The position numbers and the translations under genes are program-made. Positions 23,093 through 50,705 of a stretch of 64,000 nt of DNA are shown in pieces. Each line of letters begins with the position of its first letter. Position 1 is the first letter of the stretch. Origin of the DNA: Haliotis cracherodii (taxonomy: Eukaryota); assembly GCF_022045235.1 (NCBI RefSeq), contig NW_027266343.1, positions 49,600,001 through 49,664,000 on the forward strand, given 5' to 3'. Below the pieces are notes generated by a model. It was given only the letters and a program-made list of their open reading frames with translations, did no database searches and was not told the DNA's origin.

Positions 23093-23283
23093 AGGATTTC
23101 AAAACACTTCTTACCCTACATCGCTGTTTTTCAGATCTGTTGATTTGTCCTCATCTGGAAAGAGAAAAAGATATTTTACTTTCCATGGATCATTGATTCA
23201 AACACTGTTTCTTAATCCTCAAATAGAATGTGGTTTGTTGTTGTCTAACACTGCACTCAATAAAACTCAAGCTATATGATGTA

Positions 23284-23430
23284 CAGTAAACCTCGGTTAT
23301 AACAAACTCAAAGGGACTTCTAATTTTAGTTCATTATAACCGTAGTTCGTTATAAGCATATATACAGTAAGTAAGTTCGTTATATCCGTCAGTTCGTTAT
23401 AAGCGAGTTCGTTATAACCGTAGTTGACCG
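23284..23430. mobile_element. MITE family M1, reverse orientation
   Basis: TA|CAGTAAACCTCGGTTATAAC ... GTTATAACCGTAGTTGACCG|TA, with reiterated GTTCGTTATA motifs. Confidence 0.85.
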
Positions 23431-24303
23431 TATGTAATATATATATATATAACTATATATATAAATATATAATCTGTAATCACTTTTCCCTGAAGATAAA
23501 ACTGAAACATGTAGCAATATATATATACATATATATAATAATAATAATTATATATAATAATTAATGTCTTCCAGGACTGATTAATTCCACACGACAAATA
23601 CTATGAAGCTAAAATGCTGCCTCATCAATAGTGCTCCAAATGTGCATCTGCCAAGGTTCCAATGCCCTGCATGGGATCTACTTTTAATGCTAGTATTGGC
23701 TGAGCAAAGGTTTTCAGACAGATTAAAATCTCGCAAATAGACTATTTTTGTCGCAAGCCCCACATCATACAGCTATGGAATGAGATGGACCCCTCCGCCA
23801 GGAACCATCAAGATCCTGTCTCAAGATTACTCACTTTCTGTGAAGGACCTCACTTTCAAGTCAGATACTTCCCACCATAGGTGAGTGTAACTTACATATC
23901 CCCTGACCAATTGCCGATTGGCTATTTCAGATCATGGTCTTGGACCCCCATCAAAAGATATCTGCGATCTAAATCATGTTTGACACTGACAAAGACATCT
24001 GTCAAGTGTAAATATTTAATGGAGGATGAGGTGGGGAGGAGAATCTCCAGAGTGCACCTCTGATAATGAGTTGTGCCAACCATGGAACACCCTACAGCGG
24101 CCACAGGAGGGTGAGGGCATCGATCCTCACTAACCAGATCTCATGTAGTACCCCTGTGGGACATGAAGGTTATTCTTTATCATTAAGTTTGAAATACTGA
24201 CGGGTGATGTTCCTTCTAAATTTTTTCCTTCCTGATATGATCCCGCCATTTCTTGCTGCTATGATTTGTGTTTGATTGTGATGCCTGGTCATCTTGTTTG
24301 AGT

Positions 24304-24580
24304 GAGTGAGTGAGTTGGGTTTAACGCCGCTTTTAACAGTATTCCAGTTATATCATGGCGTGGCAGCATAATGTGAGAGGAAAGCCCGAAGTGATGCAGG
24401 TCTCAGACGTTTCCCACTTTGGTGAAACCCACAAGCACGGGTATAGTACTGACAAACCTAGAAACATAATCGGGGCGACTCGGGATTTGAACCCACAATC
24501 ATAGGTTTCTGGCGTGCCCAAGGGACGCAACTCTGCATAGCGAATCACAGCGCCTTAGATGACTGGGCCACCCGTGCCCC
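24304..24580 (-). mobile_element. tRNA-derived SINE family C, full length
   Basis: Head GGGGCACGGGTGGCCCAGTCATCTAAGGCG...GGTTCAAATCCC, (ACTC)n tail; 12-bp TSD TCTTGTTTGAGT at 24292 and 24583. Confidence 0.92.
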
Positions 24581-25489
24581 ATTCTTGTTTGAGTTGCAGG
24601 TGTGTACGAGTACGTCACATACATATCACATCTTAGTGATCATCATGTAATTTCCCCTGTGCAGAACTAGAAGAGTCATTAGCTGTTAACTATTCCGTTC
24701 AGCAACGTGATTAGTATCCGCCTGAAAGGATGAAGGATGAAATTCGACAGAACATGAAGACATGCTTATTTCAAACGATGCATGTCAGTTGTTTGCTGCA
24801 TTCATTTCAAAGAAAACATCCAGTAGATTTATCTTAAACAGGATTTCCCAAATATCTGGGCTCCACAACTGCCAAATCACCATTAAGCAAAACCTCTTGA
24901 TGTTATGTTATAAACGTGGGTTATTTCTCACTTGTTGACGAGTAACTGATATCAAGTCAACACATCAGTGTAAGTGAGTGATGAATGCTCCCAACAAATA
25001 TTACAGTACTATAACTGTGTGTCAGATGAGGTGAAATGGGATTTAACGTCGCGGCCAAGATTATTGCACTTATATTGCGACATGTGTGTGCATGCGTGCG
25101 TGCGTGCGTCCGTCTAGATGTTTACCACTGTGGTGAAACCCAGAGAACAGAATGGCACAGACAATCCAAGGGAAGGGTGATAACTAGGGATAATTTGGGA
25201 TTCAAATCCATGATCATCCAACCCTGGCATGGCTAAGTGGAATGCTGCGCGTTGAATTCCAAGCCACCAATGCCCCAAAATGAAATAGAACCTTTTTAAG
25301 TGAAAAATAGCAATGTGAAACACTTGCAAGAATTTCAAGTAAGATGTTAAAACTTTTGGACAGATACCGTTCAAATCAGTTTATAAATAGATAAAATATA
25401 ACTGGAACATTCTTCCAGACTGCTTGAACACAATCTCACAAGCAACTACAATGTCATTCAGGGATAAAACGACAAAAAAGACTGCCACA

Positions 25490-25735
25490 TCAAAAGCAGA
25501 TTTTTGTGAATTTTCCTCGAAACATTACTTTCTTCAACATAAGGCACCTGTGACTACAAAGTCCGAAACAGTTGTAGAACTTTGATGTCAGTGATCTCAT
25601 CCTCATGGTAATCTCCTTGCACATACAACAAAGACATTGACGGTACTTTGGATGGTTCTCAGTCGGCACGGCACACGATAATGAGACAAAGACTATGAAT
25701 AAATACATAGCCAGACAAAACCTGAAGCAGGGCAT
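25490..25735 (-). CDS. Candidate secreted cysteine-rich cationic peptide, 81 aa (97 aa from the upstream ATG at 25783)
   Basis: ATG in a CAAACATG context; hydrophobic leader MPCFRFCLAMYLFIVFVSLSCA|VP; 59-aa mature part with 8 Cys and 12 K/R versus 2 E; CATAAAAG TATA-like box at 25828-25821. No homologue recognised. Confidence 0.45.
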   Translation of the reverse strand: MPCFRFCLAMYLFIVFVSLSCAVPTENHPKYRQCLCCMCKEITMRMRSLTSKFYNCFGLCSHRCLMLKKVMFRGKFTKICF

Positions 25736-26778
25736 GTTTGTCCATCTCTTCACTGTAATGAAGGAACGGGAAGACTGGAACATCCTCGTCTTGCTGGGCT
25801 CACTGTGATGGTGACAAACCCTTTTATGTACATCTCTCTGTTATTCCAAGGGACAATTTTAGGAAGTAATGAAATATGGGGGACCTTAAGTGGCCAATTA
25901 CTGTGTGAGTCAGACATGTAAACTGGATAACCTCCTGATTAATTAGGTGTTACAGGAGGTCATAGCATCAAGCATTATCTAATTAAGCATCACCACAACG
26001 CCTGCAATGTCTGTTTCTATTCAATTAGCACAACAGACCAGTTCATAACATTCTGTCTCAAGTCTAATACAACTCAGCCAATTCACATCATTTGAAAGAT
26101 GTTGTCTTGTGAAGTTACAAAAATGTTGGCTGAAACTTCATTTCGACACCTAATGCAACTAAGCTTCCCAAAATACATGTCTCTCGAGAGAAAAATCAAG
26201 AAAAATGGGTTGATGGCTGGAGGCTGTTTTTGAAAGGATACCATTGCTGAGCGTTGCTGGAGAATGGAGTCTTTCTATCATGAACCTTTCAAGGGTACTG
26301 AGTGAGTAATGATAAATGATACTGATTGAAGAAAACTACATGCCACTTTTAATCCATTAACTGTTACTCTGAAATAAATCGGAAACATTGAGTTGGAATA
26401 AAATGCTAATATGGAATTAGGAGTTTTACAGTTCTAAGAAGAATTCTTATTAGCTCCTTGTGAAATGACATCCAATAAAGACAAAAATACATTAATTTCT
26501 ATAGATTTCTTCCCCAGATTAATCTCATTGTTGCCAGATAGCCAACTGCCGTGCCCTGAACAGCATGGGCCACTAAGCAATATTGTAATATGGCTATCAG
26601 TGGTTGGCTCATTGGCACACAAGGTGTGCCCTGACATCGGACACAATCAGGCCTTAATCAACACGCTTGGAAGAATCAGCAACTACTGTGATATTATGAA
26701 GTTAATTCACATATACAGCACAAGTGCTAGGTTCGCACATTTTAAATTTCTTCAAACTACTAACTGGAATGACTTCGA

Positions 26779-26900
26779 GAGTGAGTGAATATAGATTTAA
26801 TGAGATTTTAGCAATATTCCAGCCTTATGAGGGCAGGGAACACCAAAAATGGGTTTTACACATTGTACCCAAGGGAGAAGTCCAACCCAACTGATGAGTG
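26779..26900 (-). mobile_element. Degenerate SINE family B copy
   Basis: TTTTAGCAATATTCCAGC...ACACCA.AAATGGG.TT.ACACATTGTACCCA. Confidence 0.7.
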
Positions 26901-27570
26901 AAAGAACAGAAATGTTAAATATGATGCTGGATCAATCAGCATGGAGAACTTGTGACAGTGAGTGAATATTATTTAATACAGCAGTCCGCAATATTCTAAC
27001 TTCCATGTTTTCTTGAGTATAGTGCAGTATTCAGTATTTCGAAAAAACGATTTTTCGAGTATTATGTGCATAAAGATACTTCATCGTATCCCTTCAGTGA
27101 ATTCAGTTAAACAAACAGGTGATAACAAAATGAAATCTGATATTAAAAAAAAAAATCACTGCAGAAAGTGATAAGCCATTTTAATTGTATTTCCTGTTCT
27201 CATAGGCATTGCTCTGTATGCAGAGATTAAGATTATGTATATTACGTATATTATATTATTTTGTAAAGTTGGAAATAGCAATCAGCAGTACACAATGCAC
27301 CAGTGATTATGGTGTGCATAATGTGCACATCCCTCTACACAGCTGTGTTCTTTGGAGAAAAAATTGGCACTAAATATGGTACATCATGGCAACCTGTGAA
27401 TAATTGATTCGGATTGAGGCAAATCAGTGACTCAAAGCATGTGCAATGTCATACGTTGTTTGGGTGTAATGACTCGCAACCAGCCAAGTGACAGAGCCTA
27501 ACAATCTGAGCATTCCATTAGTACTGGAGACAAACCACCGGGGCATTTGAACTGAAATCTATGCTAAGAT

Positions 27571-28520
27571 AACGAAGGGGTGGCTGAAAAGCTATAAGTC
27601 TAACTATGATTGACTGTATTGATGGAGGTGGTTGCTGATTATTTGTCACAATAATCCCCTCCAAGGTCCACACACTTCTGCCAACGATGCTGGAGTGCCT
27701 GAAGTCTTCCTCTTGGTAGTGTAAAAACTCCTCCACAGCAGAAACGATGTTATCATTTGCATAATGCTTGCCAGACATTTTTTTCTTCAAGTTTGGGAAG
27801 AAGTGGAAATCTGGTGACACCAAATCTGGTGACTACGGAGGACGATCAGTGAGTCCCAAACCACTGTCATGGATTGCAGTCACGACAATAGACTTGTACA
27901 CAGGTGCACTGTCCTCGTGTTACAACACACCTTTTGTGAGTTTGCCACAAAGTTCAGCCTTCATATTCTCACTCAGTTGCCTTAGCCAATTAGCATAATG
28001 TTCATAAAAAGAGAACTCAAGACAAGTTACATGTCCTGGTTACAAATCTTTCAACAAAGTCTGCTTCAAACTGACAAAATTCTCACAGGAACTGTTTGAT
28101 GGGCATTTTTAGAAGGTGGTAAGTAACAGATATTTGAATTCAATAATGATGATTATAAAAAATCTTGTCTTTATGCTCATGAGCAATGACGAACCTGGAG
28201 CAGAAGCCTTGGAAGTTTGATACCTCCGAATGTTCTCAACACACTCATGAGAGATGCCTTCTGTATTTGGCTACGTGACGTGGGGTCAGTCGTCCGTTGT
28301 CCATATTCATATTTAATCAACATTTTACGCAGTGGAGGCAATCACAGGTCTTCTTGATCTTGGATCAACCTCATGGCAAAGGAAGGATAGTCTTCCCCTA
28401 AAGTTGACACCATGGTTGTTGCAGTTAGCCCTTTCAGCCGGAGAAATTTTTTCCATTTTCATCTTCAAAAGTTTCAAAATGCAGGCAATTTTGGAGTTAG
28501 GAATGAAAAATAACAAAAAG
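27571..28520 (-). pseudogene. Decayed mariner transposon (transposase pseudogene)
   Basis: Interrupted motifs MEKI..FLRLKGLTA..MVSTLGEDYPSFA, KASA, GKLTKGVL*HEDSAPVHKS and RPP*SPDLVSPDFHFFPNLKK (mariner HPPYSPDLAPSDF); end resembles a TACGAGGGG..TGAAAAG TIR. Confidence 0.85.
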
Positions 28521-29576
28521 TAAATGGAGATAACAACTTCTTCTCCATACTTGCATACAAATTTCAGATCACAAACTATCATATTTTTAGATGATATTTG
28601 TCTAGCCTTAAGATAAGGCAGCACTGGTGGAAGAGTTTTCACAAATGAACCCTCCTGCAAAAATGGCCACCATGCAAAACTACAAATTTTGAACTATTTC
28701 TAGTGGCCAAACAGCAAGTTGAATTTAGAGTTTAGGATATGCTGCAATATGTTTGCTTCCAGATTTGGAAAATGTGACTTAATCATTCTAATGTAATTCA
28801 TAAACATCGTGAACATTAACACTCTTATCAACTTCGGGTTACTCATAAAAATTTGATGGCTGCTTCACATGGCAAACTTGCCACCTTCCGCAGGAAATAA
28901 ACGACTTCATTGTTGTTAATTAAACAAAAGAATGGACCTGGAACAATATTCATTGTTTAATGAACATATAATGAACTCTTCTAATTAATTGAAGATGAAA
29001 CATTATGCAACAAAACTGACGAAAACACAGTGTTTCATAAAAAATCATTTACATTTCATCATTTATCAGATACAGTAACCGCAACAAAATGTAGTAAACT
29101 GGAACACCACACAGAACAGTCGCTATTTCATGTCCTCTCACTTTGAATATATTCACACACTGCCAAACACCTAGAAATCTGAAAATGGCAGTTTGTTGTC
29201 TACAGCATGCCAATAAAATGAACATCTGATCGTGGTAAACACATCTGCTAAACAACGCATAACTTCACTCGTGAATGATTCCTCATAAAGTTGATAATGA
29301 ACAGAAATACAGAAATATTTATGCAACTAGTATTTCGTTTCAGTTGACAATGCTCATTATCCAATAATATACACATATTTATAAATATTTCCAGTGGAAT
29401 AAATAAGTGTTTGAAAATAGGGTAGACAAGGCTTTATAATCCTTTAACAGTAGTTCCATCATAATTTGAGTTACAAACATAAAAGTTCAATTACAGTTTT
29501 AAATGTTTGAAGATGAAATGTCTCTTTGATAATTAGCAAAATCTCATCACAAATTTAATTGCTTTTGTACCAGAAG

Positions 29577-29731
29577 CAGCGATAGAAATTGGCACTAGTC
29601 CTGTAGTCCTTGCCAAACTGCGCAATAGTTAAGGTATCATAAGGACTAGTAGAAATTTGCCATTTTTGAGGGTTTTTCTATATGTTATCATTATAAGGAC
29701 TAGTGGACTAATTATGTTATTTTCTATCCCT
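29577..29731. mobile_element. About 155-bp CAG-terminal MITE family M3
   Basis: CAG.G.TAGAAA / TTTCTA.CCCTG termini with ACTAGTCC / GGACTAGT motifs; copies at 39235, 46589 and 61942; no consistent TSD seen. Confidence 0.8.
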
Positions 29732-30835
29732 GCAAGAGGAGATTTTTCTCTCATATTTAATCATTTCCAGTATAATCCCAGCAAAAAACACACATCGGTC
29801 CACTACAAATACACACAGGTCCATTAGAAATACTAACAGGTCTTTTACAAATAATGCATCAGTAGACATTCACATCTTGAAACTATATACCTTCAATACT
29901 TCAAAGCATCTGAATCAATAACTACCAGTTGACAGAAAATAAAAGCACAGACATTTCTCCTGATTCACAAGAGAACAAATGATTTCTGCATCTTCAAACA
30001 TCACATGCTCTTTTTCTGTAACTGAAAAACTTTTGAAAATCGTACAATTGTGATGAAATTTCAACTCTCCAATTCCTTCCGACAAATAGATGATGTTAAG
30101 ATTAGTGTGTTTTGTTGCAGCGGCTGTGCTCAGCATACAAACTAAGGGGTTTTGTTTCTGAGATGGTTCTCCTCCCCAGCTGATGAGGGGCCCCATCATG
30201 CAGAATGTTGACAGCTTCCATCACAGTGAAATGCGTCTGTTTTAAAAAGCTCTTCATTTTGCCATCATCTGGATATTTCACACACCCCAGAACTCATTAC
30301 ACTTGGCAAAGGTTCTTCAGCATGAAAGAAATCATTACAAATTGGAGCAGGAAATTATGTATATTTGAACTGACAGTTTGCTTCAAATTCCTATCTGGAA
30401 TCAACAAAATACTTGTCGGAATCCTTTCGGAAGAGATCAATGTAATGAACATCAACATAAACCTTCAATTGATTTTCTTTTTCAGATACAAAAGAAAGTT
30501 ATGAACTTTAAATGAAAAGTGAAATGTTCTGGGAAATTCAAACAAGGAACACTATGACATAAATCTCCATTCTGAAGGAACACACTCTTTGATCATCTTG
30601 TTTATAACATGGATTCAAAGCAACAAGCAAGTGTATCTATAAAAGTCAGTTTTATATTTTAAATCAATTATGGCATGTGTGAATACCCCTGCTCCTTCAC
30701 AGAGCCTGATGTCTCCACAACGGTATAAGTGTGATGCTTTAGATGACTAGTGCACCAGTGGCCCCTGGTGGAAGAACAAATAACAAGTTACACAAATGAA
30801 TTTGTTGTGTATTGTGTCTTAGTCAGTAGTAATTT

Positions 30836-31005
30836 TGGGACAGGGGTGGCTCAGTCGTCTAAGGTGCCGTGATTTGCTGTGCAGAGTTGTGTCCCTTGAG
30901 CATGCCAGAAACCTATGATTGTGGGTTCAAATCCCGATTCGCCCTGATTATGTTTCTAGGTTTGTCAGCACCTGCCCATGCTTGTGGGTTTCATCGAAGT
31001 GGTAA
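30836..31005 (+). mobile_element. SINE family C, 3'-truncated
   Basis: GGGGTGGCTCAGTCGTCTAAGGTG...GGTTCAAATCCC, collinear with the reverse complement of 24304-24580. Confidence 0.85.
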
Positions 31006-31093
31006 AAGTCTGGCTTTCCTCTCAGAGCACAGTCCCTATATCCCAGCAACCTGTATGACCATCTGGACCAGGAAAACCTATTACGGGAAACAT

Positions 31094-31998
31094 GACCCCA
31101 GGAAGTGTCAGGGTGTAACATGTAGGGAGGGAGAGGTCACTGTAGGGAGTTTATACATCTCCCTCTGAACCCCAGGAAGTGTCAGGGTGTAACATGTAGG
31201 GAGGGAGAGGTCACTGTAGGGAGTTGATACATCTCCCTCTGAACCCCAGGAAGTGTCAGGGTGTAACATGTAGGGAGGGAGAGGTCACTGTAGGGAGTTG
31301 ATACATCTCCCTCTGAACCCCAGGAAGTGTCAGGGTGTAACATGTAGGGAGGGAGAGGTCACTGTAGGGAGTTGATACATCTCCCTCTGAACCCCAGGAA
31401 GTGTCAGGGTGTAACATGTAGGGAGGGAGAGGTCACTGTAGGGAGTTGATACATCTCCCTCTGAACCCCAGGAAGTGTCAGGGTGTAACATGTAGGGAGG
31501 GAGAGGTCACTGTAGGGAGTTGATACATCTCCCTCTGAACCCCAGGAGGTGTCAGGGTGTAACATGTAGGGAGGGAGAGGTCACTGTAGGGAGTTGATAC
31601 ATCTCCCTCTGAACCCCAGGAAGTGTCAGGGTGTAACATGTAGGGAGGGAGAGGTCACTGTAGGGAGTTGATACATCTCCCTCTGAACCCCAGGAAGTGT
31701 CAGGGTGTAACATGTAGGGAGGGAGAGGTCACTGTAGGGAGTTGATACATCTCCCTCTGAACCCCAGGAAGTGTCAGGTGTAACATGTAGGGAGGGAGAG
31801 CTCACTGTAGGGAGTTGATACATCTCCCCTGGACCCCAGGAAGTGTCAGGTGTAACATGTAGGGAGGGAGAGGTCACTGTAGGGAGTTGATACATCTCCC
31901 TCTGAACCCCAGGAAGTGTCAGGGTGTAACATGTAGGGAGGGAGAGCTCACTGTAGGGAGTTTATACATCTCCCCTGGACCCCAGGAAGTGTCAGGGA
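31094..31998. repeat. 74-bp G-rich minisatellite, about 12 copies
   Basis: GAACCCCAGG at 31241 and 31611 (5 x 74); units almost identical. Confidence 0.97.
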
Positions 31999-33158
31999 GT
32001 TAAAACACATCCTTCAGGACCCACAGAGCCGTCAGAGTGTAGCTAATGACCATCTCCAGACAAGGAGGCTAGGACTGTAACTATCAAGGCAACAAGTTAA
32101 TGTAAATGAAACTGGTATTGATCTGTGAGGATAAATATGATATCTCCATGAGCTGGTGGCCTCTGATCACCCCCACTGGCCAGCACACCAACACAGCACC
32201 AAGCCACACCACAGCATCAGATGGACCACTTTTTCTTAAAATGTCTCCCTTGTGAGAGCGCCAGTAGAGCCTCTATAAAGAAAATTAGATTGCCTCAATT
32301 CCAATAAAATGAAGCAAAGACTTTTGATCTGGGGAGAGGGAACAACTAGACAGAAACCCTCTTACACTCACTATCAGTTTAACGCCAAAGTTTGCAGCCA
32401 AAGCTTTCTTTTTTTATGAAGGAAAGCTATAAAATTCCAAAAAGCCCATCAGAGAGAAGCTGAGTTGTGATGATCAATGGAAAGCAAACCTGGCACAGCT
32501 TCATTCACTGCATTTATAATCATTTCTCATGATATCAGTGGGTTTGATGCTTGTGATAAATGCCAGTCTGCCCTTGAATCAAACATGACAGTGCTGGGTG
32601 GGGTCTACTCTGGATCCCCATCACTGATAAACAGATGATTTGCTGTTTGTTCTTTCACCAAAAGGCATGTTCCTGGGAAGGATTATTGATATTATTGGAC
32701 AGTATTAATCCCATCAGTAACTTAAATGATAAAGAAATGGAACAGCTGAGAGACGACATAATTCATGTTTACAGAACTTGTCTGAGAGAGTCAAATCATT
32801 GCTCATTATTAAGAGAGTAACGACATATTGAACAATCGCAATTGTTTGCCCTACGATAGTACTATATCGATGTGGCAGGTATGAATTACCAAGAATACAG
32901 GTTGTTGTCATTTCATTTATAGTTTTGACTCTAACAGTATCATCTTTAAACGTTAGTCTAAAGTTATAGGCTTGTTCATTGGCTTGTTTTAAAATACTAA
33001 ACGCTACTTGCACGTCAGCCATTGCACTTCACAACAATCAGAACACATCAACGATCGCATCGCAGAGCACTTAGGACTTAACAACAAATCTAAAGGTAAG
33101 TATAATGTTTTAAGGGTTGTATATATTTAAGTACTGAGTAATAATGGTATTGACATAT

Positions 33159-33335
33159 GTGAGTGAGTGAGTGAGTATGATTTTACGTCGCTTTTTAGCA
33201 ATATTCTAGCAATATCACGGCGGGGGACACCAGAAATGGCCTTCACACACTGTACCCATGTTGAGAATCGGACCCGAGTCTTAAATATTCGGCGTGATAA
33301 GCGAACGCTTTAACCACTAGGCTACCCGACCGCCC
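33159..33335 (-). mobile_element. SINE family B
   Basis: (GAGT)n ... TAACCACTAGGCTACCCGACCGCCC on the plus strand. Confidence 0.9.
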
Positions 33336-34007
33336 ATGTTTAACGTAAATTAATTAAGGGTGAAACGATACACAGATATTCCGATGCATCGCAATACTTG
33401 ACCCACGATACAATATACGATAAAGGTGGGCCCATTTGTTTGTCTTATCAAGGAGTTATCGTTCTTGGATGGTTGCCACAATCAAAATGTGTTGATGACA
33501 ATGTCATTATTTCTGTATAGTATCATTTATTGCATATTTTTTCTAAGGAACGATATTAGAATTACTCCTTTTATAACTGAAATGGTTTGTGATATTAATT
33601 TGTTGTATTTATTGATAAATGTGTATATGCTAATCCTGAACTAGTTTGTATTCCCTATACATGTGTGTCAGGGTGTCTATCTGTCAATAGACAAAGAAAT
33701 AAGGTCTTGTAACCTGTGTCTGGTCTTCCTGTACACCTACACAATTCCGGTTACATCAACAGGAATTTTTAAATGAAAGTAATGATACATCCAACACATC
33801 CAAGGTTAAATACTGAGGAATAAAAGAGGAATAACTGTTTCATTGGCATTCCAGAAGTTGGTGAGTAAGTAAGAAAACATAAAAGCACACTCCCGCTTGA
33901 TAACAGTGTAAGAATCTACATCGCAAGGTTACAATAAACCAGAAGTTTTTATCCAAAAAGTATGTTTTCCTAAAAGAGGAATACCAAGCTTTTACAATCT
34001 AATTAAA

Positions 34008-34465
34008 ATCAGATCCTAGTTCTGAACGATCTGAAGACATCCCATTAGGGGTCACGTCAGAACGACCTTCCATCCGACCAATCACTGTGTTGCTTACCAG
34101 ATTATGAAAGGGACTGTCCAAATGTGAATTCTAATCATGTAATCTCGAAAACTTTAACATGGGGTATTCCGAATGATAGCTACGGGTTTAACGACTGAAT
34201 CCTTACATTCTACACCATCTATTAGTCATTCCAGAATGTTTTTTTGTTCAGGTTTCAAATTTGTAATCAAGAATTTGTAAAAATATGTTTCGAAGCGTAG
34301 TCGCCAATTTAAAATTTGTGCCGTAAAGCACGAGAAAGCTGGTTTCTGATTGGTCATTCCATTAGTCGGTCAGTTCAGTTCGGTTCGCGTAAGGTCGGTC
34401 TGACGTGACCCGTAATGGGATGTCCTCAGATCTTTGTTTAGCAGTAGCAAGAACTAAGGTCTGAT
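34008..34465. mobile_element. Long-TIR MITE family M4
   Basis: ATCAGATCCTAGTTCT...GACATCCCATTAGGGGTCACGTCAGA versus TCTGACGTGACCCGTAATGGGATGTC...AGAACTAAGGTCTGAT; second copy at 43447. Confidence 0.8.
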
Positions 34466-34875
34466 ATCAATGAGATTGAAGCTTTTACTTCGTGACAACC
34501 ATAACTGACAGATCAAAGTGTGACATAACGGTGTTTGTTGAGAGCTTGTTATGTATGTCATTGTTTCTGCCCATGTTCAGTGAACTTGACATGACAATCA
34601 ACTCCAATATGTCAAGAATTTTTTTTGTCTCTGTATCAATGCGAGCAAAGAAATTGTTTGAACTCCACTTGAACATTAATCACACTAAAACTCTCAGGTA
34701 TATATTTAAGTCTCTTGCCCTTAACCACCAGTCTCAATACCATCATTGTGCGAGGTGTCACCTCGATCGTTAGATTTCATGATAACAGCATAAAGAGATA
34801 AGGTTGCCTTTTAGCTCAGCAATTTCGGCTGAACCGCCTCCTCTATGGAACTCATGAGGGTGGGTGAGTTACTTA

Positions 34876-35037
34876 AGTAAACTATGGTTATTATGAACTC
34901 AAAGGGACTACTAGTTTTAGTTTGTTATAACCGTACTTTGTTATAAGCATATATACAGAAAAGGGTTGGGATAAAAAAACAGTACATTATATCCATCAAT
35001 TCATTATAAGCATGTTCGTTATAAAAGTAGTATAGTG
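34876..35037. mobile_element. MITE family M1, diverged
   Basis: AGTAAACTATGGTTA...GAACTCAAAGGGAC...GTTCGTTATAA. Confidence 0.75.
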
Positions 35038-38000
35038 TATATCTACTAGGAGTAACTTTTAGTATTGATAAGATTTAATGTTTGGCGCACAACTAAGATA
35101 TTTTGTTGTAATCGCTCCAGCTTGATAAATGTGTAAGAATCTACATAGAAACATCTCTAAGTGCAAGAAACCAGCAGTTGTTATTGATAAAGTTGTTCCT
35201 TTCCTCATTTAGCCAGACATTAAGTTAACAGAATGGAAGTAAATACATTATGATCAAACTTTCTTTTCTGTGGCACAAAGATTTTACATCAAAGTGGAAG
35301 TAACAAAATCTGCTCCAAGTAATGATGATACAGAATTACTGCAATTCTGACTTAAGTAATCGGGTTGCTTCAATAGTTACACACAAAAACAAACTAAAAG
35401 CTTGCTACACAGAAAGAAAAATAATATATCGCAAACAGCGCAAATGACCACTTCAGAAATAAATACAATAAGTTTGCAAATGCATTCTCATTATTTCAAT
35501 GAAAGGAAATTTTGATGAATTGTAAGATGTCTTTAAAGAGAGAAAGCAGGTCAGTGCTGACTACTGCAGGAGAAAGCATGTCTGGATCAGTTTGCACATC
35601 TGCCTGCCTTGGCCTGTGCAGCTCAACCCATTTTCCACAGTACAGTTGGCTCCATAAGCAGACTAATTTCCTAATTACACTCCGGAGAGACAATGACAGG
35701 ATGGCGGCAGGAAGTATTTGTCTGCCAAATGCTAACATTAATCCTGCTATCGGGTAATCAAACATCAGCACGCATTCCATCACAACAACCAGCCATCCAA
35801 CATGCCTACATTCACTAAAACCCCATACATTTAATTTTGTCTAACAAAGGTCTGACTCGCCGTGCTTTTATTCTGATTTTCAAAGACAAAGGCTTTGAAA
35901 TTTCATCTGAAGTCTTCCCTTAGGTAATAAATGATCCCATTCTTGGTGTTTAATGAGAAAAGGGAACAAATAAAGGCTGATCGCTGCCAATCTGTATTGA
36001 TCCTCCACACAATTATTTAATATAGAGGAAGTGCCTAGCAGTAACTGTAGTAGCGGAGTGATGAAGTCTTGTTACAGATAGGACATATGTGGATTGTAAT
36101 GCAGTAAGCAACAGGGGATGGTGGGGAACATCATCGCCCCATCATAAAGACTAACCATCATCGCCAGCTTCTCATTGGCTGCGGGGGAGCAATATCACCA
36201 AATTGAAGGTAATGACAAATACTAAAGATCAAACCCATTTTCACTTGATCGATGGAGTATGGGAGAGAACCGAGAGAAGAGTTCACACAGAAACAGACGC
36301 CGACTGCGGTGTGTTCACGTACAAACCCGCAGGACATTTGCTGATATTTCTCACTTCAATGTACACTGAATGATTCCCAATTGATGCAACTTCCAGAATG
36401 TGCCCAATTGCTCCTCCCTTTCATCTGTACCATTAGATGAACTGCAACTGTAGCTGAAATCGTTTTTAATGTGGAACCTTTAGCCACGTTAATACCTTCA
36501 TCTACCAGCTATAGAGAGTAAGAGATGAGTTTTTGTCAGTGTCGTGGATGTTCTGCCATGCATGGGTATTGATCCGATCCGTCACTTGGGGTGATACAAC
36601 TTGAAAGGGACATCAGTCGGAGAGGTGACCTCAGGCTGCTTGTGACCCCTCACTCCTGGCAATCAGAACTGCTCAGAGCGCTTCACTGCATGGCTGGCTA
36701 TAGGCAAGGCGGGAAATCTGGTGTCAGCTAACGACAAACAGAGGACGTCTGCCAACCTTTACTCACTTGACTGAGGCTGTCATTCACACAACGGGAAACA
36801 GACACCTTTGATCGCAATTAATGACTTCATATTGTGTGATTGAGTTCATCTTCCACCACTGTGACATGTGGGTAACCCACGCCTGTGGAACTGTGGCCTA
36901 GCAACAGATTACAGCTCATGTGATGTAACAACTCTTGTGATATCCAAGCAGCTCAAAGTGTCATGGACTAAAACATCAGGCAGAATCTGGAAGGCAGTTT
37001 CCTTGAGAAGAACTCTTCAAAACTAAACATTTCCTCAATGGAAGAGACAAAAGAAAGGCATGTTCGACATTTTTGACACATAAACCTGTAGAGGCCCATT
37101 AAAGGATGGTACTTGCTGAAGAACTCTAATCGGCACTTCAACATTCTGGCAAGTTCTTAATTGGACAAAGTGAGGATAGTAATTGCCACAACCTGGAAAG
37201 CTAGGTCTGAGTCATATTCTGACTGTGACAAGTGGACCTAATCTGACCTCCTCTGTTGCCCTGCACACCGCGATCTGGGGAATTAAAGACTGGTATTGAT
37301 TGTCTGACCACTGTCCAACATTATCTGAGACGGTGCTGAAACTCAGAATTGAGAGGCACTTTTCTTGCCTTCAAACTGTCTGAATCTGATGCTATGACAG
37401 CTTTATAAATTGTGGAGAAAGCCCCCTTACAGGTAAGAATTATATGTGACACAAAGCTTTCTGGAAAATATCAAACACTCAATTACACCAAACTTATCTA
37501 ATTGTGGCTCTGCTTGTAAACACCACTGTCTCATCAATTATTCAGTCATATGTCATTAACCTAACTGGCACTGATTATCCGAGCACATGTGATATGGTGA
37601 TGTGATCAGTGCCAGGTCTTCACAAGATGTCCACGATGCCAATGTTCTTGACGACAGGACATATTTAAAAAACTTGAACATGTAGATGTACCATTTTTAA
37701 AGCTGTAGCTCAAATATTTGCGACCCACTCATTAAAACCAGATGCAAGGCAAGATAATATATTATTTTGAACCATGAGCATAATAATTTTGGGGAAAAAC
37801 ACCTTGTAACACTTGGAACAATGTCAATTTTGTGGCAGACAATTTCCTATTTTAAACATCCGGAAGCATAAGTATTGTTTTCACAAATTTTCTGGGACAA
37901 TTAATTTTTTTTCATAAAATCACAGGGCACCCCATCCCAACACAACCAATCCCATTTCAAATAGTCAGTCCCTAAGACTTTAAATAATCTAAACAGAATA

Positions 38001-38551
38001 TCCTTTAGAATATGTACAAACCTCCAATTACTATTTTGTTCAACTTGTAGACAGTTGTCTTACAAAGTGATAATTTTTATAAACTTTTCAACAACATACC
38101 AAAAGTACTGAAACATATAAAAAACATGTTCATCTTTAAAATAGACATTAGTTGCAGGTTGAAGTTGTTTCAGTTATTGATTGCCTCCAAGAATACACGG
38201 AAAAAAGACCACCATACCTCCATTAATCAGTGATGATTTAGCTCCCTTTATCCAATTACCATAGGCGTACACATGCTATGCCTCTTTCCCTCTCAACTTG
38301 TCATCTGACAGACAGAGTCTACATTGTTAGTGCTGAACAAGCATTGCTCACAGCTGTTTCGTAATGGAGGACTCACAGGACACAACACATGCCCTCAGTC
38401 TATTAGATTAAGTATTCCAGACTGTAACCTTCTCCATGCATTGCAATGACATGGAACTGTGTCATCTCACTTAAATTTCACATGGCTTGAATTGTGAACT
38501 ACCATGGCACGAGAGTATCTTCAAAAGCACTCTGACATTCTCCAACATTGA

Positions 38552-38826
38552 GTGAGTGAGTTGTGTTTAACGCCGCTTTTAACAGTATTCGAGTTATATC
38601 ATGGCGTGTCAGCTTCATGCGGGAGGAAAGCCCAAAGTGATGCAGGTCTCAGATGCTTACCACTTCGGTGAAACCCAAAAGCGCAGGTATGGTGCTGACA
38701 AACCTAGAAACATAATCGGGACGAACCAGGATTCAAATCCACAATCATATGTTTCTGGCGTGCCCAAGGGATGCAACTCTGCACAACGAATCGTGGCGCC
38801 TTAGATTACTGGGCCACCCGTGCCCG
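38552..38826 (-). mobile_element. SINE family C, full length
   Basis: Collinear with 24304-24580; TSD CTCCAACATTGA / CTCCAACACTGA. Confidence 0.92.
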
Positions 38827-39234
38827 CCTCCAACACTGACAGTAATATCAGATCTATGGAAGGCAAGGCCAACACAGACACTTGCCAGAACTTCTAGAGA
38901 CGTCATTCAATACTTTTAATTCTATATATAACATATACCATATCTAGGCATGCATTTTTTCAATTCATTCAAAGTAATAGAAATTTGTATAGATCATAAT
39001 TTTATATTTTATTTACAATGAAGTTAAGGGATAAAATGCTAATACTGTTTAAATTGTATTATGTGAAATATTTTTACCATAATATTGACATATGTATTTA
39101 ATTGGAAGAAGTCCTTGTCCCTGTCATGAAAGGCTACTTCTGTCACAAATTATGTAAAAAATTAATCTCATTTGTATAATTTCTATTTTTCTAATCCATC
39201 CAAGATAGAGCGGTGCCGCAAATGAGAATAAAGT

Positions 39235-39390
39235 CAGCGTTAGAAATTGGCACTAGTCCTGTAGTCCTTACCAAACTGCCCAATAGTACAGGTATCCTAA
39301 GGACTAGTAGAAATTGGCCCATTTTAAGGGTTTTGCTATATGTTATCATTATAAGGACTAGTGGACAAAAACTGTTAGTTTCTAACCCTG
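39235..39390. mobile_element. MITE family M3
   Basis: CAGCGTTAGAAA ... TTTCTAACCCTG. Confidence 0.82.
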
Positions 39391-40477
39391 AAAGTTATAC
39401 TCATTGTATTTGAATATGATTGTGATTTTTGACACCTGTCAGTCAAAATGAACTGTAATATGTACAGTGTCAACCAATTCACATCCCATGTCTTAAGATG
39501 AAGTATGTCCAATGGTATGTCCTATCTAATCAGTGCTGGAAGTTAAGCATGAAAGTCAAGAGGTCCCTGTCATTACTCTAATGTTAGATTCAGGGGTCCT
39601 TAAACTAAATCTGGACAGCAGAAAGTTTAAATCAGGATCTCGGTCCCTCCTAATTTCTGCCACAGCTAATAATTTAAGATGTCTAACGAGATCAGTCTGT
39701 GATTGAAGACTTTGGCCTTTGGCATCAAATTAAAGATGTCAGTTGTATAATTTTTGGTATCAATGTGCTACTAGTAACTGTCATAAGAAAGCCTCTCACA
39801 ACATATATTAACGCAATCTATAGCAACATTCTGAAAGATGCAGCTTAAAATCATAGACTAAACTTCAAACAGGAAAATACACAGTGTCATATAAAACAAA
39901 AAAATGAAATAAAGCCCATTTTATGACAGGCTGCATATTGGACAAACTTTCTTTAAACTACAACATCCCTGGATTGTAACCTTGTTTCTTGATGTCCTAA
40001 CCCTGTATGATGCCATCAATGGAATATCACTACACACTACAATATGTATGTTTGTTCATAAGCTTGAAAGGGAGGTGAGGGGAAATGGGGTTCAACGTCG
40101 TGTTCAAGAATTGTTAACAGTTTACCTGAAAACACTGTAATGTTAAAACATTTTTCCCATTTCATGTAATTGTGTTGTTCAAACACCTAAAGTCATCAGG
40201 CTACAGAGACAATGATGTGCACAGAAATGAGACCACATCAGGTCATGTATGTGGATAGAGAACGCAAAGTTGGGTGTCAATGTTACTGATGAGCCTTCTA
40301 CATCTCTGAATAACAATTCATATAAGAACACAGGAAGTGGCAACCTGAGTGATATGGCATTTGGACCCAAATGACAAAAAGAAATACGTTCTTCTTACTG
40401 AAATACTTAATTATAGTGTCAAGTGGACATCCCCACCCACTGAAGGTTAAAACTTGAAAAATGTGGACCACCATTGT

Positions 40478-41240
40478 AAAATATAGTGCTACGGCACTGT
40501 AGCTCACCTGGATATGAAGTCAGTTTGATATATCAATGAAGACAGGTTGATACTTAAATATTCAAACATATGTTGAATCTCACAACAAACTAAACAAATA
40601 CTAAAGTTTGTACAAAAATGGCCAAGTAATGGCCATAAATAGCTTTTTCAATATGGCTGCCATGGAGGGAAAATCGGATTCAAACCTCTTGAGCTCATTA
40701 AGCTTTCATAATTATTGGGAAAAATCATGTGAAGGTTGACCTTTATTGGAAGTTGGATTCTGGGGAGATAATGTCTACATTGCAAGGGAATGCATGCTGA
40801 AATAATTTTGGAGTATGGTCAAATAAAGATCAAAATGCAAAATATAGTGAAAATCAGACCAGCCCCATTACTATCTACACCTGTACCAAATCTCATAACA
40901 TTTTGAAAGAAAAGGTTGAGTGATGGCCGTAAGAAGATTCAGCTTTCAGTATGGTGTGTTTGAACCTCAAAGGTCAGATCAAGGCCACAATTTACGATAT
41001 AAAAACATCGCAAAACGGAACATATCATTACATGTTAAGCCAAATAACTAGCTACATATGTACCAAATTTCATGATATCTTGTAAATAAATAACCAAGTC
41101 ATGGCCATCAATGGGCTTTTCAATATGGCAGCCATACTGAAAAACAGATTCAAACCTCTTGGTGGGAACAAGTATGTGATATCTCAGCTTCGCTGGTTCA
41201 GTGGTTTCCGATAAGACTAACTTCAGACAGGTGAGCTAAA
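40478..41240. mobile_element. Older HINE/Helentron-type element
   Basis: Hairpin AGTGC-TACG-GCACT followed by sub-terminal IR TAGCTCACCTG (40500) / CAGGTGAGCTA (41228); degenerate internal repeats (TTTTCAATATGGC.GCCAT, GATTCAAACCTCTTG, GTACCAAAT.TCAT). Confidence 0.65.
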
Positions 41241-42013
41241 AGCCGTGGATCTGCCTCTGTACAGGTAAATGATATTCATACAATTCAAATGAATTAACTT
41301 TCATAGGCCATTTAAAGTTTTTGCAAGCATCCAACTAACTTTGTTAAAAATAATACAATCTATGTTTATGTTTTTGTGAATGTAAATGAATAATTAATGA
41401 AGGCCATTCTGAGAAGTAGATCAAATTGAGAGCTGCTTGTGAGTTGCCATAGAAACATGACCTGAGAAGGCGAGGGTTATTACTAAAGGGGGGTCCTCTG
41501 GCATTCACTAGATGGCTAGATTGCTAGATGCACTGCTTGGGAGACAGTCCCAATCACATTAATCACTTGACCATCAGATCAAATATTCAAGCATGCACAT
41601 GGCCCAGATCACACGTCATGTATCCATGGTACAATGGAAGATTGCATCAGGTGAACAGAGGTAGGACATTGTTTCTGTTATGTTTCTGTCTTGTTTTATA
41701 CATTTTCTCAACCAATTTGACCAGATGCTTGAGGTCAATTTAAAAAAAACAAACAGTCTTGTATAAATTATTGCCTTATTTTGAATCTGAATTTTGAAAC
41801 TATTGATAACAAGAACACATTTTACATTCACTGTATCAAATGCTCTTGGATAACAGATATACCATTTTTTTATTCACAATTAAAAGCTCCAAAATGCAAA
41901 TTCCAAATTGCATCTTTTTTAATAGTTTTGTTACTGTATCTAAGTTCTTATCCTCATTACTGAAAACTCAACCAGGACCAACATAGGTAATTGTAACGTC
42001 ATGTCTGCAGAGA

Positions 42014-42221
42014 CCCTGCGAAGATCCGGGTTAGAAGTGGTCTTCAGAAACCCATGCTTGCTGACTTGGTTAATGCATGTAATTGAATCCCAATAGCGTA
42101 GATCGATGCTCATGATGTCAATCAGTGGAATGTCTGGTCCAGGCTCGATTATTTACAGACCGCTGTCATATAGCTGGAACATTGCTAAGTGCAGCGTTAA
42201 ACAACAAATGACCAAACAAAC
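42014..42221 (+). mobile_element. SINE-like family D, internally deleted
   Basis: GAAGATCCGGGTTAGAAGTGGTCTTCAGAAACCCATGCTTG ... GCTGGAACATTGCT ... GCGTTAAAC, with a (AAAC)n tail. Confidence 0.8.
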
Positions 42222-42431
42222 AGGGCTCCAGAAAAGTTTCTCAGCCAGTGAATATTTACTCACATGTCATCATTCACATTAGGTGTTTCACGGTTTTCTC
42301 CAAGTATTGAATATATTTTTAGTCCCTTGGGTCCAGTCTATTAGGTATTTTTGAATCAATTAGAAGACATTCTAAAAATAATTCTGCTTAAATGCTGTTT
42401 CAGCTATATCATTAAATCGATAAATGTCCTG

Positions 42432-42943
42432 TTGGCTTAAAAACAATAAAAAAATGGTTCTCAGGCAATGGTTTTTGAAAATATAGTATGGGCGGGTGGT
42501 GTTCAAACTAGTGAGTGTGTGAGTATGGTTTTACGCCACTTTAAGCAATATTCCAGCAATATCACGGCGGGGGACACCAGAAATGGGCTTCACACAATGT
42601 ACCCATGTCGGGAATCGAACCTGGATCTTCGGTGTGACGAGTGAGCGCTTTAACCATGAGGTTATCTGACTGCCCCTTGTTCAAACTAGTATGTAACCAA
42701 ATAAACAATTGTGTAACGGAATAAACAATTTTGTACAATTAACCTGGGAAAGTGCCTCCCTACATAAATGGATTCCTTGATGAGTAAAAACTGGACTATA
42801 GTATTTGACTACCGTTGGACCTGGAATATTTAAGGATTTTCTGGGTTGTTTTTTTAAAAATGGAAATAAAAACGAAACGTGCGGTGAAGTTTATGATGAT
42901 GTGGGCGGTGCCTGAGAGCCAAGACTATTATTTTTTTAGCCTA
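42432..42943. mobile_element. TIR element hosting a family B SINE
   Basis: GGCTTAAAAACAATA...GGTTCTCAGGCA versus TGCCTGAGAGCC...TATTATTTTTTTAGCC. Confidence 0.6.
42513..42677 (-). mobile_element. SINE family B
   Basis: B box GGTTCGATTCC on the minus strand; 13-bp TSD TGTTCAAACTAGT at 42500 and 42678. Confidence 0.92.
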
Positions 42944-43446
42944 ATATTAAAGTGAGACGTAGCCCTTTCGTACATTATTCACTGCAGTCAAGTTTATGTG
43001 TAGGTGATGCCTGTAATTGATCAGTACCAGTGAATAAAGATCTGTAAAGATAATCAGGTATGCAGTTTAAATAGAATACATTGGGTTATTACGAAAACAG
43101 TGTTGTCATGCAATTGTTTTTTATATTTTTCTTGCAAATTTGTACTAAAGCAACTGAAAACGATTGGGTTCTCATAATATTTTTCTGTCTGGAGCTCTGT
43201 AACATTGAAAGTGCCAAGTACAACGCAGTCAGTAGATAATCAAGTCTGGGCCAGCCACACATTGTAGGCATCCAATCAGAATCTTAGTTGGCTCTTTAAC
43301 TGACAAGATGATGCCAACCACTCATAAGCCCTAAGATGAAACAGACAGACAGATATATGATCCTCAATTCTGTCCAACGCCAACAATCCGACTTATACAC
43401 TGAGTTTCTCCCTATTCTTGTTGATTGTTATTGGCAATCTCTTTCA

Positions 43447-43947
43447 AATCAGATCTTAATGGTTGCTACCGCTACACAAAGACGTTTCAGATCATGTCAG
43501 AACGACCTTCCATCTGACCAATCAGAGCATCACTTACGAAGCCGTAAAAGTGAATGTCCAAAGGTGTTTTCTGAACGGGCAACCTTAAAAAGATTATCAC
43601 AAGGTATTCCAAATCAAATCATAATCTATCTCCTACTTCAATGGGATAAACATTTGAAATGGAGGAGACTTTCCATAGGCCTTTGGAAGTACAGTCTTGG
43701 CCATCTATTTGACTTTTCATAATTTTCTTTTGTTCAGTTTTCAAATTATAAATTAAGAACACGGTCACAGAAGTGACCATTTTGAATCAGTGCTGTAAAG
43801 CTCGATAGAGCTGCTTTCTCATAGGCTAATGTTGACTTCCTGTTAGTAATTTCATCGGTCGGTCAAAGGATGTGAAAGGTCAGTCTGATGTGACCTGTAG
43901 TGGGATGTCCTCATGTCTTTGTATTACAGTAGAACTAAGATCTGATT
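43447..43947. mobile_element. MITE family M4
   Basis: AATCAGATCTTA / TAAGATCTGATT termini; shares GTCAGAACGACCTTCCATC.GACCAATCA with the 34008 copy. Confidence 0.8.
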
Positions 43948-46588: not shown

Positions 46589-46743
46589 CAGTGATAGAAA
46601 CTAACAGATTTAGTCCACTAGTACTTATGATGATAACATATAGCAAATACTTAATAAGGTCAAATTTCTACTAGTCCTTATGATACCTTAACTATTGCGC
46701 AGTTTGGCAAGGACTACAGGACTAGTGCCAATTTCTAACACTG
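46589..46743. mobile_element. MITE family M3, reverse orientation
   Basis: CAGTGATAGAAA ... GGACTAGTGCCAATTTCTAACACTG. Confidence 0.82.
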
Positions 46744-48809: not shown

Positions 48810-49877
48810 ATGACAATGAAGATGCCCTATTTCGTGTTGTACCCGAAAAATGATTTTCCGTTCCTGATCCCACCTCTGAAGCACTGCCTGACCACCCATG
48901 CATTGTGTACAAATGGCCTCCAGCCAGCTAACACCACCCTGTACTGGATGGAGATCAGTGACTATTTCTGCTTCCTGGCACTGCCTGTCATCATCTCCTT
49001 TGCCTTCGTCACCGAGATCATCAGCATCATCGTCTTGTCCAAGCAGATTAGGATGTCCCTAGACACGTACCTGCTGGGCCTGTCTATAGCAACAATACTC
49101 CTCATCTGTTGCACAGTGGTGTTAGTGCTTCAACACTACATAGGTTACCATCCAGTGCTTACCTACATCCAGGGCTATGCCATAAGCTGCCGGGACTGGT
49201 TTTGGTACACTACTATATGGCTTATTGTGATGATGAGCTTTGAGCGGGCACTCACCGTGTCCGCAACCCGCTCTAGCACCCTGTGTACTTCTGCTCAAGC
49301 AGGTGTTGTGGTTGTGATGGTGTTTTGTGTAGGTCTTGTAAGCGCCTTACCAAGATTCTGGGAATACGCAGCTACAGGTGTTTTTGATTCCTCACGTAAT
49401 GTCACAGTTCTCATTTCAGAAAAGACGGAGTCAACAACCACGCCAGAGTACAACACAATGTATTTCTGGTATGTTAAAACTATAACGCTATTTCTCCCTT
49501 ATTTCATGATGCTTTCAATCTCCATAACCCTCAGTTGTAGGACCAGACGTTCCACCATGACACGGCGCTACATGTCTGTCAAACACTCCAGCGGACTAAC
49601 TCTAAACCGTAAGATTAAGGAGGAAATAGCCTTGTCGAAACTTTTAATTCTGATAATCAGTGTGTATGTGATATTCACCACACCATTCTGTCTGCTGGAC
49701 CTGCTAGCGTATGCCCTGCCGGGCTGGATTAGTTCAGACAGTCGTATGTTTGCGAGTCTGTACAACCTGTTCAGTGTCAGCTTCTTTCTCCACTATGCCC
49801 TCCATCTTATCCTTTACTTCTGCTACAATAAACAATTCCGTCTGACGCTCCTGGCCCTATGCTGCTGCTGTTGTTGA
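48810..49877 (+). CDS. Intronless class A (rhodopsin-like) GPCR, FMRFamide-receptor/sex-peptide-receptor/GPR139-142-like, 355 aa
   Basis: Seven hydrophobic segments; YLLGLS in TM2, WLIVMMSFERALTV in TM3, LPRFWE after TM4, FLPY in TM5, FTTP in TM6, LILYFCYNKQFR in TM7/helix 8; N-glycosylation sites NTT and NVT; terminal Cys cluster. Confidence 0.93.
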   Translation: MTMKMPYFVLYPKNDFPFLIPPLKHCLTTHALCTNGLQPANTTLYWMEISDYFCFLALPVIISFAFVTEIISIIVLSKQIRMSLDTYLLGLSIATILLICCTVVLVLQHYIGYHPVLTYIQGYAISCRDWFWYTTIWLIVMMSFERALTVSATRSSTLCTSAQAGVVVVMVFCVGLVSALPRFWEYAATGVFDSSRNVTVLISEKTESTTTPEYNTMYFWYVKTITLFLPYFMMLSISITLSCRTRRSTMTRRYMSVKHSSGLTLNRKIKEEIALSKLLILIISVYVIFTTPFCLLDLLAYALPGWISSDSRMFASLYNLFSVSFFLHYALHLILYFCYNKQFRLTLLALCCCCC

Positions 49878-50547: not shown

Positions 50548-50553
50548 AATAAA
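50548..50553 (+). terminator. Candidate polyadenylation signal of the GPCR
   Basis: AATAAA about 670 nt after the stop, followed by GTTGTGG and T-rich sequence. Confidence 0.5.
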
Positions 50554-50705
50554 CATTGGAAACTATATACAAGTTGTGGCTACTAACTCTGAATTTTAGT
50601 TCTCTTTTGAGAGAATCTTGAGTTCACTAAACATGAGTCAATTAAACCAAACATTTGGGAAGGTCGTACCAAAGACTGATGATTGATGTTCTGCAGTATT
50701 ACCTT

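Follow-up and report, generated by a model that had tools for sequence, protein, structure and literature searches.

Orphan secreted cysteine-rich peptides are, as a general kind, already known from molluscs, and to our knowledge few defence peptides have been described in abalone. The CS-alpha-beta peptides (defensins, mytilins, myticins, and macins) are secreted and cationic, contain eight cysteines, and share a CSH motif, in which the spacing is CxxxC in the helix and CxC in the strand. The cysteines of the helix precede and pair with those of the strand in this motif (PMC5116183). The gamma-core word of these peptides (GXC or CXG) sits in a beta-hairpin. Mytilus MgCRP-I and oyster CCCGS are lineage-restricted and secreted, are expressed at very low levels, and are without a proven function in the available portions of PMC4558851 and PMC8398477. 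MgCRP-I forms a multigene family with four exons, the coding region extending over three, and its C-C-CC-C-C array follows a propeptide of ~15 residues that ends in KR or RR (PMC4558851). CCCGS has eight cysteines in 42 aa and provides a precedent for a very lowly expressed eight-cysteine orphan (PMC8398477).

Among signalling peptides, eclosion hormone and the CHH-ITP group carry six conserved cysteines. Helical hairpins stapled by disulfides are found in the plant alpha-hairpinins and in the nemertean neurotoxin B-IV. In Platynereis, the CLCCY precursor contains a dibasic propeptide and the array C-x6-C-x6-CC-x4-C-x8-C-x6-C-x-C, and CCRFamide is a four-cysteine peptide that ends in RF-G-KR (PMC3890597, in the portion available). 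The clionin of H. discus hannai, as read by eye from part of PMC6523705, has the array C-x3-C-x2-C-x10-C-x4-C-x4-C-x11-C. The nacre of abalone contains low-abundance mini-proteins rich in Cys, His, and Arg that are overlooked by proteomic surveys, according to the available part of PMC6003135.

In this report, an open reading frame (ORF) from Haliotis cracherodii, known as black abalone, is compared with these systems. It lies in a stretch of 64,000 nt, referred to as the window. In our view it is a credible but unproven gene for an orphan secreted peptide, and it falls outside every family examined. The coordinates of the features are included in Table 1.

Table 1. Features of the locus, in positions of the window
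Feature	Position	Strand	Basis or remark
ORF, 81 codons (81 aa)	25735-25490	minus	unannotated, uninterrupted, located in an intron
Predicted signal peptide, 22 codons	25670..25735	minus	our heuristic on hydrophobicity and residues (-3,-1)
Mature peptide as predicted, 59 aa with 8 Cys, net charge +10	25493..25669	minus	translation; low-confidence two-helix model
Stop codon TGA	25490..25492	minus	low-divergence block ends here
Inferred 5' leader	25736..25797	minus	start site inferred from TATA spacing
Putative TATA-like box CATAAAAG	25828-25821	minus	sequence
Low-divergence upstream block, likely proximal promoter/enhancer	25829..26252	minus	listed changes and motif positions
TATAAA, possible variant polyadenylation signal	25380..25385	minus	weak
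DNAAF9-like host intron, phase 1, >40 kb	23155..64000	minus	extends past the end of the window
Seven DNAAF9-like exons	23115-23154, 7378-7462, ~5191-5273, 4379-4423, 2470-2624, 667-737, 180-324	minus	
Single-exon rhodopsin-family GPCR	48810-49877	plus	Pfam 7tm_1 E 6.5e-12; antisense in the same intron
Dispersed repeat, which we take to be SINE-like	25020..25280 (approximate limits)	unstranded	contig depth very high over 25005-25146 (4/4 runs)

The ORF and the predicted peptide

An earlier note on this DNA had described a minus-strand ORF of 81 aa with a mature region of 59 aa, an eight-cysteine framework, and a charge of about +10, and all of these were reproduced from the sequence. The cysteines of the predicted mature peptide are at positions 12, 14, 15, 17, 34, 38, 42, and 58, which gives the framework C-x-CC-x-C-x16-C-x3-C-x3-C-x15-C. 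Seven Lys and five Arg less two Glu account for the charge; Asp is absent and two of the 59 residues are His. When the mature peptide was scanned for processing signals, no amidation signal was found and KK occurred once, internally. The predicted signal peptide has a hydrophobic N-terminus and ends in S-C-A, with V-P following the predicted cut. This N-terminus passes our own heuristic, which random windows pass ~2.8 times each. The even cysteine count that the earlier note had claimed holds with the predicted cleavage after residue 21 or 22 and is lost with cleavage after S20, which would leave nine cysteines.

The DNA had also been called non-repetitive, and this was borne out: no second copy of the ORF was found within the window, and in two DNA runs of a related organism (organism C) the depth over 25289-26770 was that of approximately one contig, which indicates a single copy in organism C at 80% likeness. 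An origin of the ORF from a transposon or other repeat was considered and is unsupported, since both the window and, at that likeness, organism C show one copy.

The host intron and the nested GPCR

The ORF lies in an intron, as had been stated before, and the intron belongs to a DNAAF9-like gene with the same orientation. The frame at 2471-2623 matches Haliotis DNAAF9-like proteins, and the residues encoded by the exons agree with H. cracherodii protein P0005, also at one site where H. rufescens has another residue. The exon of 40 nt at 23115-23154 codes for about aa 352-365, and no exon for aa 1-351 was located in the window; the ORF is therefore sense-nested, and the phase-1 intron around it exceeds 40 kb. 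A minisatellite array with a 46-nt unit stops ~20 nt from the donor of this 40-nt exon.

The GPCR that lies antisense within this intron is present in NCBI as an exact sequence and clusters at 90% with proteins of H. asinina and H. rubra. Its H. asinina relative is named 'vertebrate ancient opsin-like', and the GPCR itself gives a weak match to the Srw chemoreceptors (E 0.009). The nesting looks conserved, since the GPCR contigs of H. asinina and H. rubra are equal in extent to their DNAAF9 contigs. A ligand-receptor pairing of the peptide with this GPCR was considered, co-location being the one point in its favour. The GPCR sequence ends in CCCCC.

Chance expectation and codon usage

A signal-like ORF with at least eight cysteines occurred in 4 of 400 copies that an order-4 Markov model produced from the non-tandem window, and one with at least eight cysteines and a charge of at least +5 in 1 of 400, by criteria that were chosen post hoc with the ORF already known and by a heuristic that was revised so as to detect it. 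This corresponds to ~180 such ORFs by chance in a genome of 1.18 Gb (the size given in the available part of PMC9709981), so the shape of the ORF alone is little proof. For 11% of the ATGs in the window a TATA-like word is found 45-130 nt upstream, and the word together with an A at -3 is found at 3.6% of 2647 window ATGs. With both required, and independence assumed, ~7 chance ORFs per genome are expected. The shape of the ORF is thus unusual, though not decisive. The codon usage of the ORF scores -0.06 bits/codon, between the intron (-0.22 +/- 0.13) and two real genes (+0.11 to +0.14, cross-validated), and does not discriminate.

Divergence from a related organism

Four of 24 listed sequencing runs were compared with the region 24650-26770. 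For organism C, two DNA runs from two studies each gave a single contig over 25121-26770 that carries 38-39 substitutions and 7 gap letters. The counts by segment take in listed changes only, with 17 changes falling beyond those listed; most of these 17 probably lie in the last 219 nt, because none is listed there (P 0.006 otherwise). On these counts the ORF has 1 change in 246 nt (0.4%) and the upstream segment 25798-26252 has 2 in 455 nt (0.4%). There are 5 in the 187 nt of the 3' flank, 3 in the 62 nt of the leader, and 13/312, 10/182, and 6/299 in the outer flanks, so that the leader and flanks differ at 2-5.5%. The lone listed change in the ORF, at position 25605, is M44R and is common to organisms B and C. 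The ORF has no indel among the listed changes, and its frame and all cysteines are kept. The next listed changes beyond the stop codon are at 25486, 25474, and 25470.

The block 25490-26252 as a whole has 6 listed changes in 763 nt as against 34 in 980 nt elsewhere (Fisher P 1.4e-4; scan-corrected P 0.0016, for a uniform rate and with natural patchiness ignored). A third run (run X1) shows the same contrast, with 1 change in 174 nt upstream and 6 in ~180 nt outside. Within the ORF, 1 non-synonymous listed change was observed against 6.8 expected (P 0.009) and 0 synonymous against 1.6 expected. The absence of synonymous changes would also be compatible with constraint on the DNA and not on the protein. 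The contrasts are sensitive to the changes beyond those listed: with 4 of them placed in the ORF the contrast between ORF and flank is gone (P 0.32), and with all 12 of run X3 placed in the block the contrast of the block is gone (P 0.57). Additionally, 128 of 694 flank windows of the length of the ORF are equally quiet. The earlier note had looked to frameshifts, stops, and lost cysteines in relatives as evidence against a gene. None was found in the one relative compared, at a distance at which a neutral ORF would keep its frame and cysteines in 20-35% of cases.

The upstream block

A cluster of motifs at 25861-26027 contains sites for AP-1, ETS, NK2, four homeodomain sites, CCAAT, T-box, a nuclear-receptor half-site, GATA, and Runx, by consensus sequences that we presume to be those of the respective factors. 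Promoters of immune cells typically carry sites for AP-1, ETS, GATA, and Runx. In a stretch of 200 nt directly above the box, 12 matches to 9 motifs of a panel of 24 consensus motifs were found, five of the nine having been spotted by eye beforehand, and the score of 13.0 is the highest in the window, where other sites reach at most 9.3. When 18 held-out motifs were used, the site ranked in the top 9-10% only. Of 200 shuffled panels, 4 placed the site in the top 1%, and 40 gave some window an equally high score. Both listed changes of organism C in the upstream block fall outside the motifs. It is moderately supported that the block is a cis-regulatory module. A reading of the block as a non-coding RNA was rejected (Rfam best E 3.8, folding z -0.85).

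The leader, the start codons, and the 3' signals

The earlier note had proposed a TATA-like box, a short leader, and a start codon in a stated sequence context. The box, CATAAAAG, and the sequence CAAAC ahead of the ATG are present as described. The short-leader model itself overlooked two intervening ATGs: one in frame at 25783, which would give a precursor of 97 aa, and one out of frame at 25745, which opens 28 aa. If the in-frame ATG is the start, the out-of-frame ATG would be harmless. Both upstream ATGs are missing in organism C, where two of the three differences in the leader fall on the A of these ATGs. A candidate 3' splice acceptor (polypyrimidine-AG) is also present, with its first exon base at 25752, and ranks in the top ~2% of 7498 AG sites by a rough matrix. 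The lack of a clear polyadenylation signal that had been pointed out was confirmed in the 840 nt downstream of the ORF, where neither AATAAA nor ATTAAA was found and the only candidate was the TATAAA at 25385.

Searches for homologues, folds, and reports of the peptide

A Pfam search of the peptide at E up to 10 returned FANCI_S2 (E 0.097) and nothing else, with HMMER filters that drop weak matches. There was no homologue in 5.8 billion proteins of near and longer lengths, nor in 1.84 billion representative proteins, a size at which remote homology over 59 aa cannot reach significance. By exact look-up, four start variants were absent from the collection that holds the annotated Haliotis DNAAF9 and the nested GPCR. 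PDB sequences gave no match, and the ESM Atlas gave no relative, with a recognition of 2277 that is just below the 2300 mark and is uninformative either way. Among metagenome contigs, none of 225 candidates for relatives was confirmed. When the cysteine framework was searched in metagenomes as a DNA pattern, there was no tblastn match among 120 of ~29,000 stretches, and the best 60 of 251 open frames were poly-Cys repeats.

A single-sequence structure model predicts helices at 7-23 and 28-46 and no strands, with a pLDDT of 56.6. Foldseek found nothing at E 0.001 or better, luffin P1 appearing at E 7.5, and the best VIA-align result (Z 5.5) matched generic helices only. The hydrophobic moment of the mature peptide is not above that of shuffles, which makes a lytic helix of the classic amphipathic type less likely. 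Four peptide motifs gave no match in the literature searched; subscription papers, figures, and further supplements could still list the peptide. There was likewise no motif match in the abalone ganglion peptide lists of the PMC6523705 supplement, as far as it was available, or in 12 of the 27 supplementary files of the shell proteome PMC6003135.

Comparison with described families

The earlier note had not recognised the peptide as a defensin, mytilin, myticin, macin, eclosion hormone, trissin, or attractin. This stands for the defensins, mytilins, myticins, and macins and for eclosion hormone on their cysteine patterns; its description of the peptide as a new family is unsupported, with one copy and no homologues. 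The peptide resembles the CS-alpha-beta peptides in being cationic, in its eight cysteines and predicted secretion, in having CxxxC and CxC motifs, and in a CXG/GXC word. The order of the cysteines is the opposite, however, with CxC at 12-14 and 15-17 ahead of CxxxCxxxC at 34-42 and with no later CxC. The CXG/GXC words, at 34-38, fall in a predicted helix (pLDDT 56.6), the model is without a beta-hairpin, and there was no Pfam or PDB match. The peptide differs from MgCRP-I in its array (C-CC-C-C-C-C-C), in having no dibasic site ahead of the Cys domain, and in an ORF that is uninterrupted and single-copy in the window and, at 80% likeness, in organism C. The likeness to CCCGS is one of description, and CCCGS carries its eight cysteines in 42 aa.

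Of the signalling peptides, clionin has the nearest layout by eye. Clionin, eclosion hormone, and CHH share with the ORF, as predicted, a signal peptide followed directly by one Cys-rich domain with early and middle clusters and a late cysteine. The peptide is far more cationic than these and has no profile match. The spacing of clionin is unmatched by eye in the one sequence compared, and clionin and CLCCY may still be related to the peptide at the level of profiles. The eight cysteines set the peptide apart from eclosion hormone and CHH-ITP, for which no Pfam match was obtained at E up to 10. The spacing given for CLCCY in the available part of its source is not matched by eye, and the word CLCC in the ORF coincides with the family name. 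Unlike CCRFamide as described there, the C-terminus carries neither an amidation nor a dibasic signal. With the alpha-hairpinins and neurotoxin B-IV the peptide shares a predicted helix-loop-helix, a cross-hairpin cysteine register, and a cationic character; the cysteine spacing is different, there is no significant fold match, and the confidence of the model is low. Perlinhibin is likewise an abalone product that is small, Cys-rich, basic, and of low abundance. The peptide, with 2 of 59 His, departs from its Cys-, His-, and Arg-rich composition.

RNA evidence

Two of the runs are guessed to be RNA. They were chosen for words in common with the region, and their contigs (depth 2-4) are blind to start, strand, and level. 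Run X2 gave one contig of 258 nt (depth 2.1) over 25407-25662, which covers the 3' two-thirds of the ORF and a further 83 nt. Run X1 gave a contig at 25785-25958 that bridges the TATA-like box and a second, intronic contig at 24650-24830; these look like pre-mRNA or DNA background. Among the listed contigs of the two runs, none spans the entire ORF, contains a splice joint, or covers the acceptor at 25752. The proposal of a novel secreted peptide gene is partly supported. It draws support from the low divergence of the ORF and upstream block and from the motif-rich block at the TATA-like box, and against it stands that none of these contigs spans the ORF.

Proposed expression and mode of action

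Factors bound at 25861-26027 would drive transcription from ~30 nt below the CATAAAAG box, probably in a cell type that is restricted or inducible. Translation would start at 25735 in organism C; in the present genome it may instead begin at the in-frame ATG 25783. Signal peptidase would cleave near the predicted C-A and V-P junction. By the register of the predicted hairpin, cysteines of helix 1 may pair with those of helix 2 as 17-34, 14 or 15-38, and 12-42, the leftover cysteine pairing with 58. The +10 surface may then bind anionic bacterial membranes or cell-wall polymers.

Weighing the explanations

We consider the chances that the ORF is a real peptide gene to be somewhat better than even. 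It may instead be a chance ORF that is untranslated and lies within or next to a conserved enhancer in the intron, one that serves DNAAF9, the nested GPCR, or some other neighbour, a reading that is possible and that we hold to be doubtful. The numbers of ORFs expected by chance (~180, or ~7 with the TATA-like word and A at -3) agree with such an origin, as do an upstream block that is non-coding and as conserved as the ORF, the absence of any listed synonymous change, RNA contigs that resemble intronic background, and a frame that is unannotated, homologue-free, and neutral in codon usage; TG-rich DNA may by itself yield richness in Cys and Met. It leaves as coincidence that the only eight-cysteine, signal-type ORF of the window lies immediately below the densest motif cluster there, correctly oriented and behind a TATA-like box, and that constraint stops at the stop codon and falls in the leader. 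The ORF could also belong to an alternative last exon of DNAAF9, reached from the phase-1 donor upstream by splicing at the 25752 acceptor, a joint that keeps the frame of the ORF. The product would be a truncated protein (~351 aa) that ends in a hydrophobic anchor and a tail rich in Cys. The rank of the acceptor, the shared strand, and a phase that agrees with the true next exon are in keeping with this. Agreement of frame has odds of 1 in 3, however, the tail is absent from 6 of 6 compared DNAAF9 proteins and from the longer-protein search, and the block above the TATA-like box is left unexplained, so that this reading is improbable. Less probable still, in our estimate, is that a gene once functional is now decaying in the present lineage and is intact in relatives: the upstream ATGs and M44 are unique to the present genome among the organisms covering those sites, but the frame, cysteines, and promoter block are intact, and the first ATG, being in frame, would make the second harmless.

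If the ORF is a real gene, a role in host defence is the probable one. The net charge of +10, the absence of Asp, the lack of an amidation signal, and the single internal KK would favour it, and the single copy, slow change, unremarkable hydrophobic moment, and pLDDT of 57 count against it. The single copy and slow change would suit a signalling ligand, a neurohormone, paracrine factor, or pheromone acting through a receptor like eclosion hormone, CHH, or clionin. The four homeodomain sites and the NK2 site may point to a cell-type-restricted promoter, and the two-helix model and the loose layout likeness by eye to the partly available H. discus hannai clionin agree with this. We think such a ligand unlikely: no Pfam hormone match was obtained at E up to 10, the cysteine spacing is unlike that of clionin, CLCCY, and CCRFamide in the source portions available, and the available abalone ganglion peptide lists have no motif match. 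Even the annotated abalone proteins hold no homologue, which is unusual for a hormone, and the charge of +10 is a further difficulty. Gamete proteins are usually fast-evolving, which counts against a gamete-surface function. That function, together with mucus and a perlinhibin-like shell-matrix role, makes up a further group in which the peptide would bind anionic polymers or mineral, and we judge the group as a whole improbable. The escape of nacre mini-proteins from proteomic surveys (PMC6003135, in part) is in its favour, and the two His and the absence of a motif match in 12 of 27 shell-proteome files speak against it.

Taken as one statement, a single-copy abalone gene with its own promoter in a DNAAF9 intron, encoding a secreted cationic host-defence peptide with four disulfides, is put forward tentatively. 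More tentative still is the proposal that it is the founding member of a class of cationic defence peptides, restricted to abalone, that form helical hairpins with four disulfides on a new cysteine framework. It would possibly have arisen de novo in the DNAAF9 intron through enhancer capture, with starts that differ between sister species. If real, it would be an unannotated secreted peptide with a cysteine framework that is absent from all databases searched, and small enough for synthesis and assay. Withering syndrome is a bacterial disease of black abalone, and the genus has been hard hit (PMC9709981, in the portion available). Additionally, the locus would be a test case for intronic gene birth and for single-exon, same-strand nested genes that annotation overlooks.

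Other features of the window

A Pfam scan of 39 other frames of the window gave none above the cut-off. Broken protein-like frames on the plus strand at 23700-24140, without a Pfam match, give the impression of a decayed retroelement fragment, and a minus-strand frame at 27500-27900, also without a Pfam match, resembles what we take to be a remnant of a mariner-type transposase. Another small signal-like ORF, at 45518-45706 on the plus strand, encodes 62 aa, is acidic and without Cys, and is within chance expectation. Minisatellites are present at 8304-10078 (unit of 52 nt), 21748-23092 (46 nt), 31095-31997 (74 nt), 55123-55964 (156 nt), 58112-58770 (24 nt), and 59775-60415 (74 nt). An element of ~155 nt, possibly a MITE, occurs in four copies and in both orientations at 29577-29732, 39234-39390, 46589-46744, and 61942-62097.
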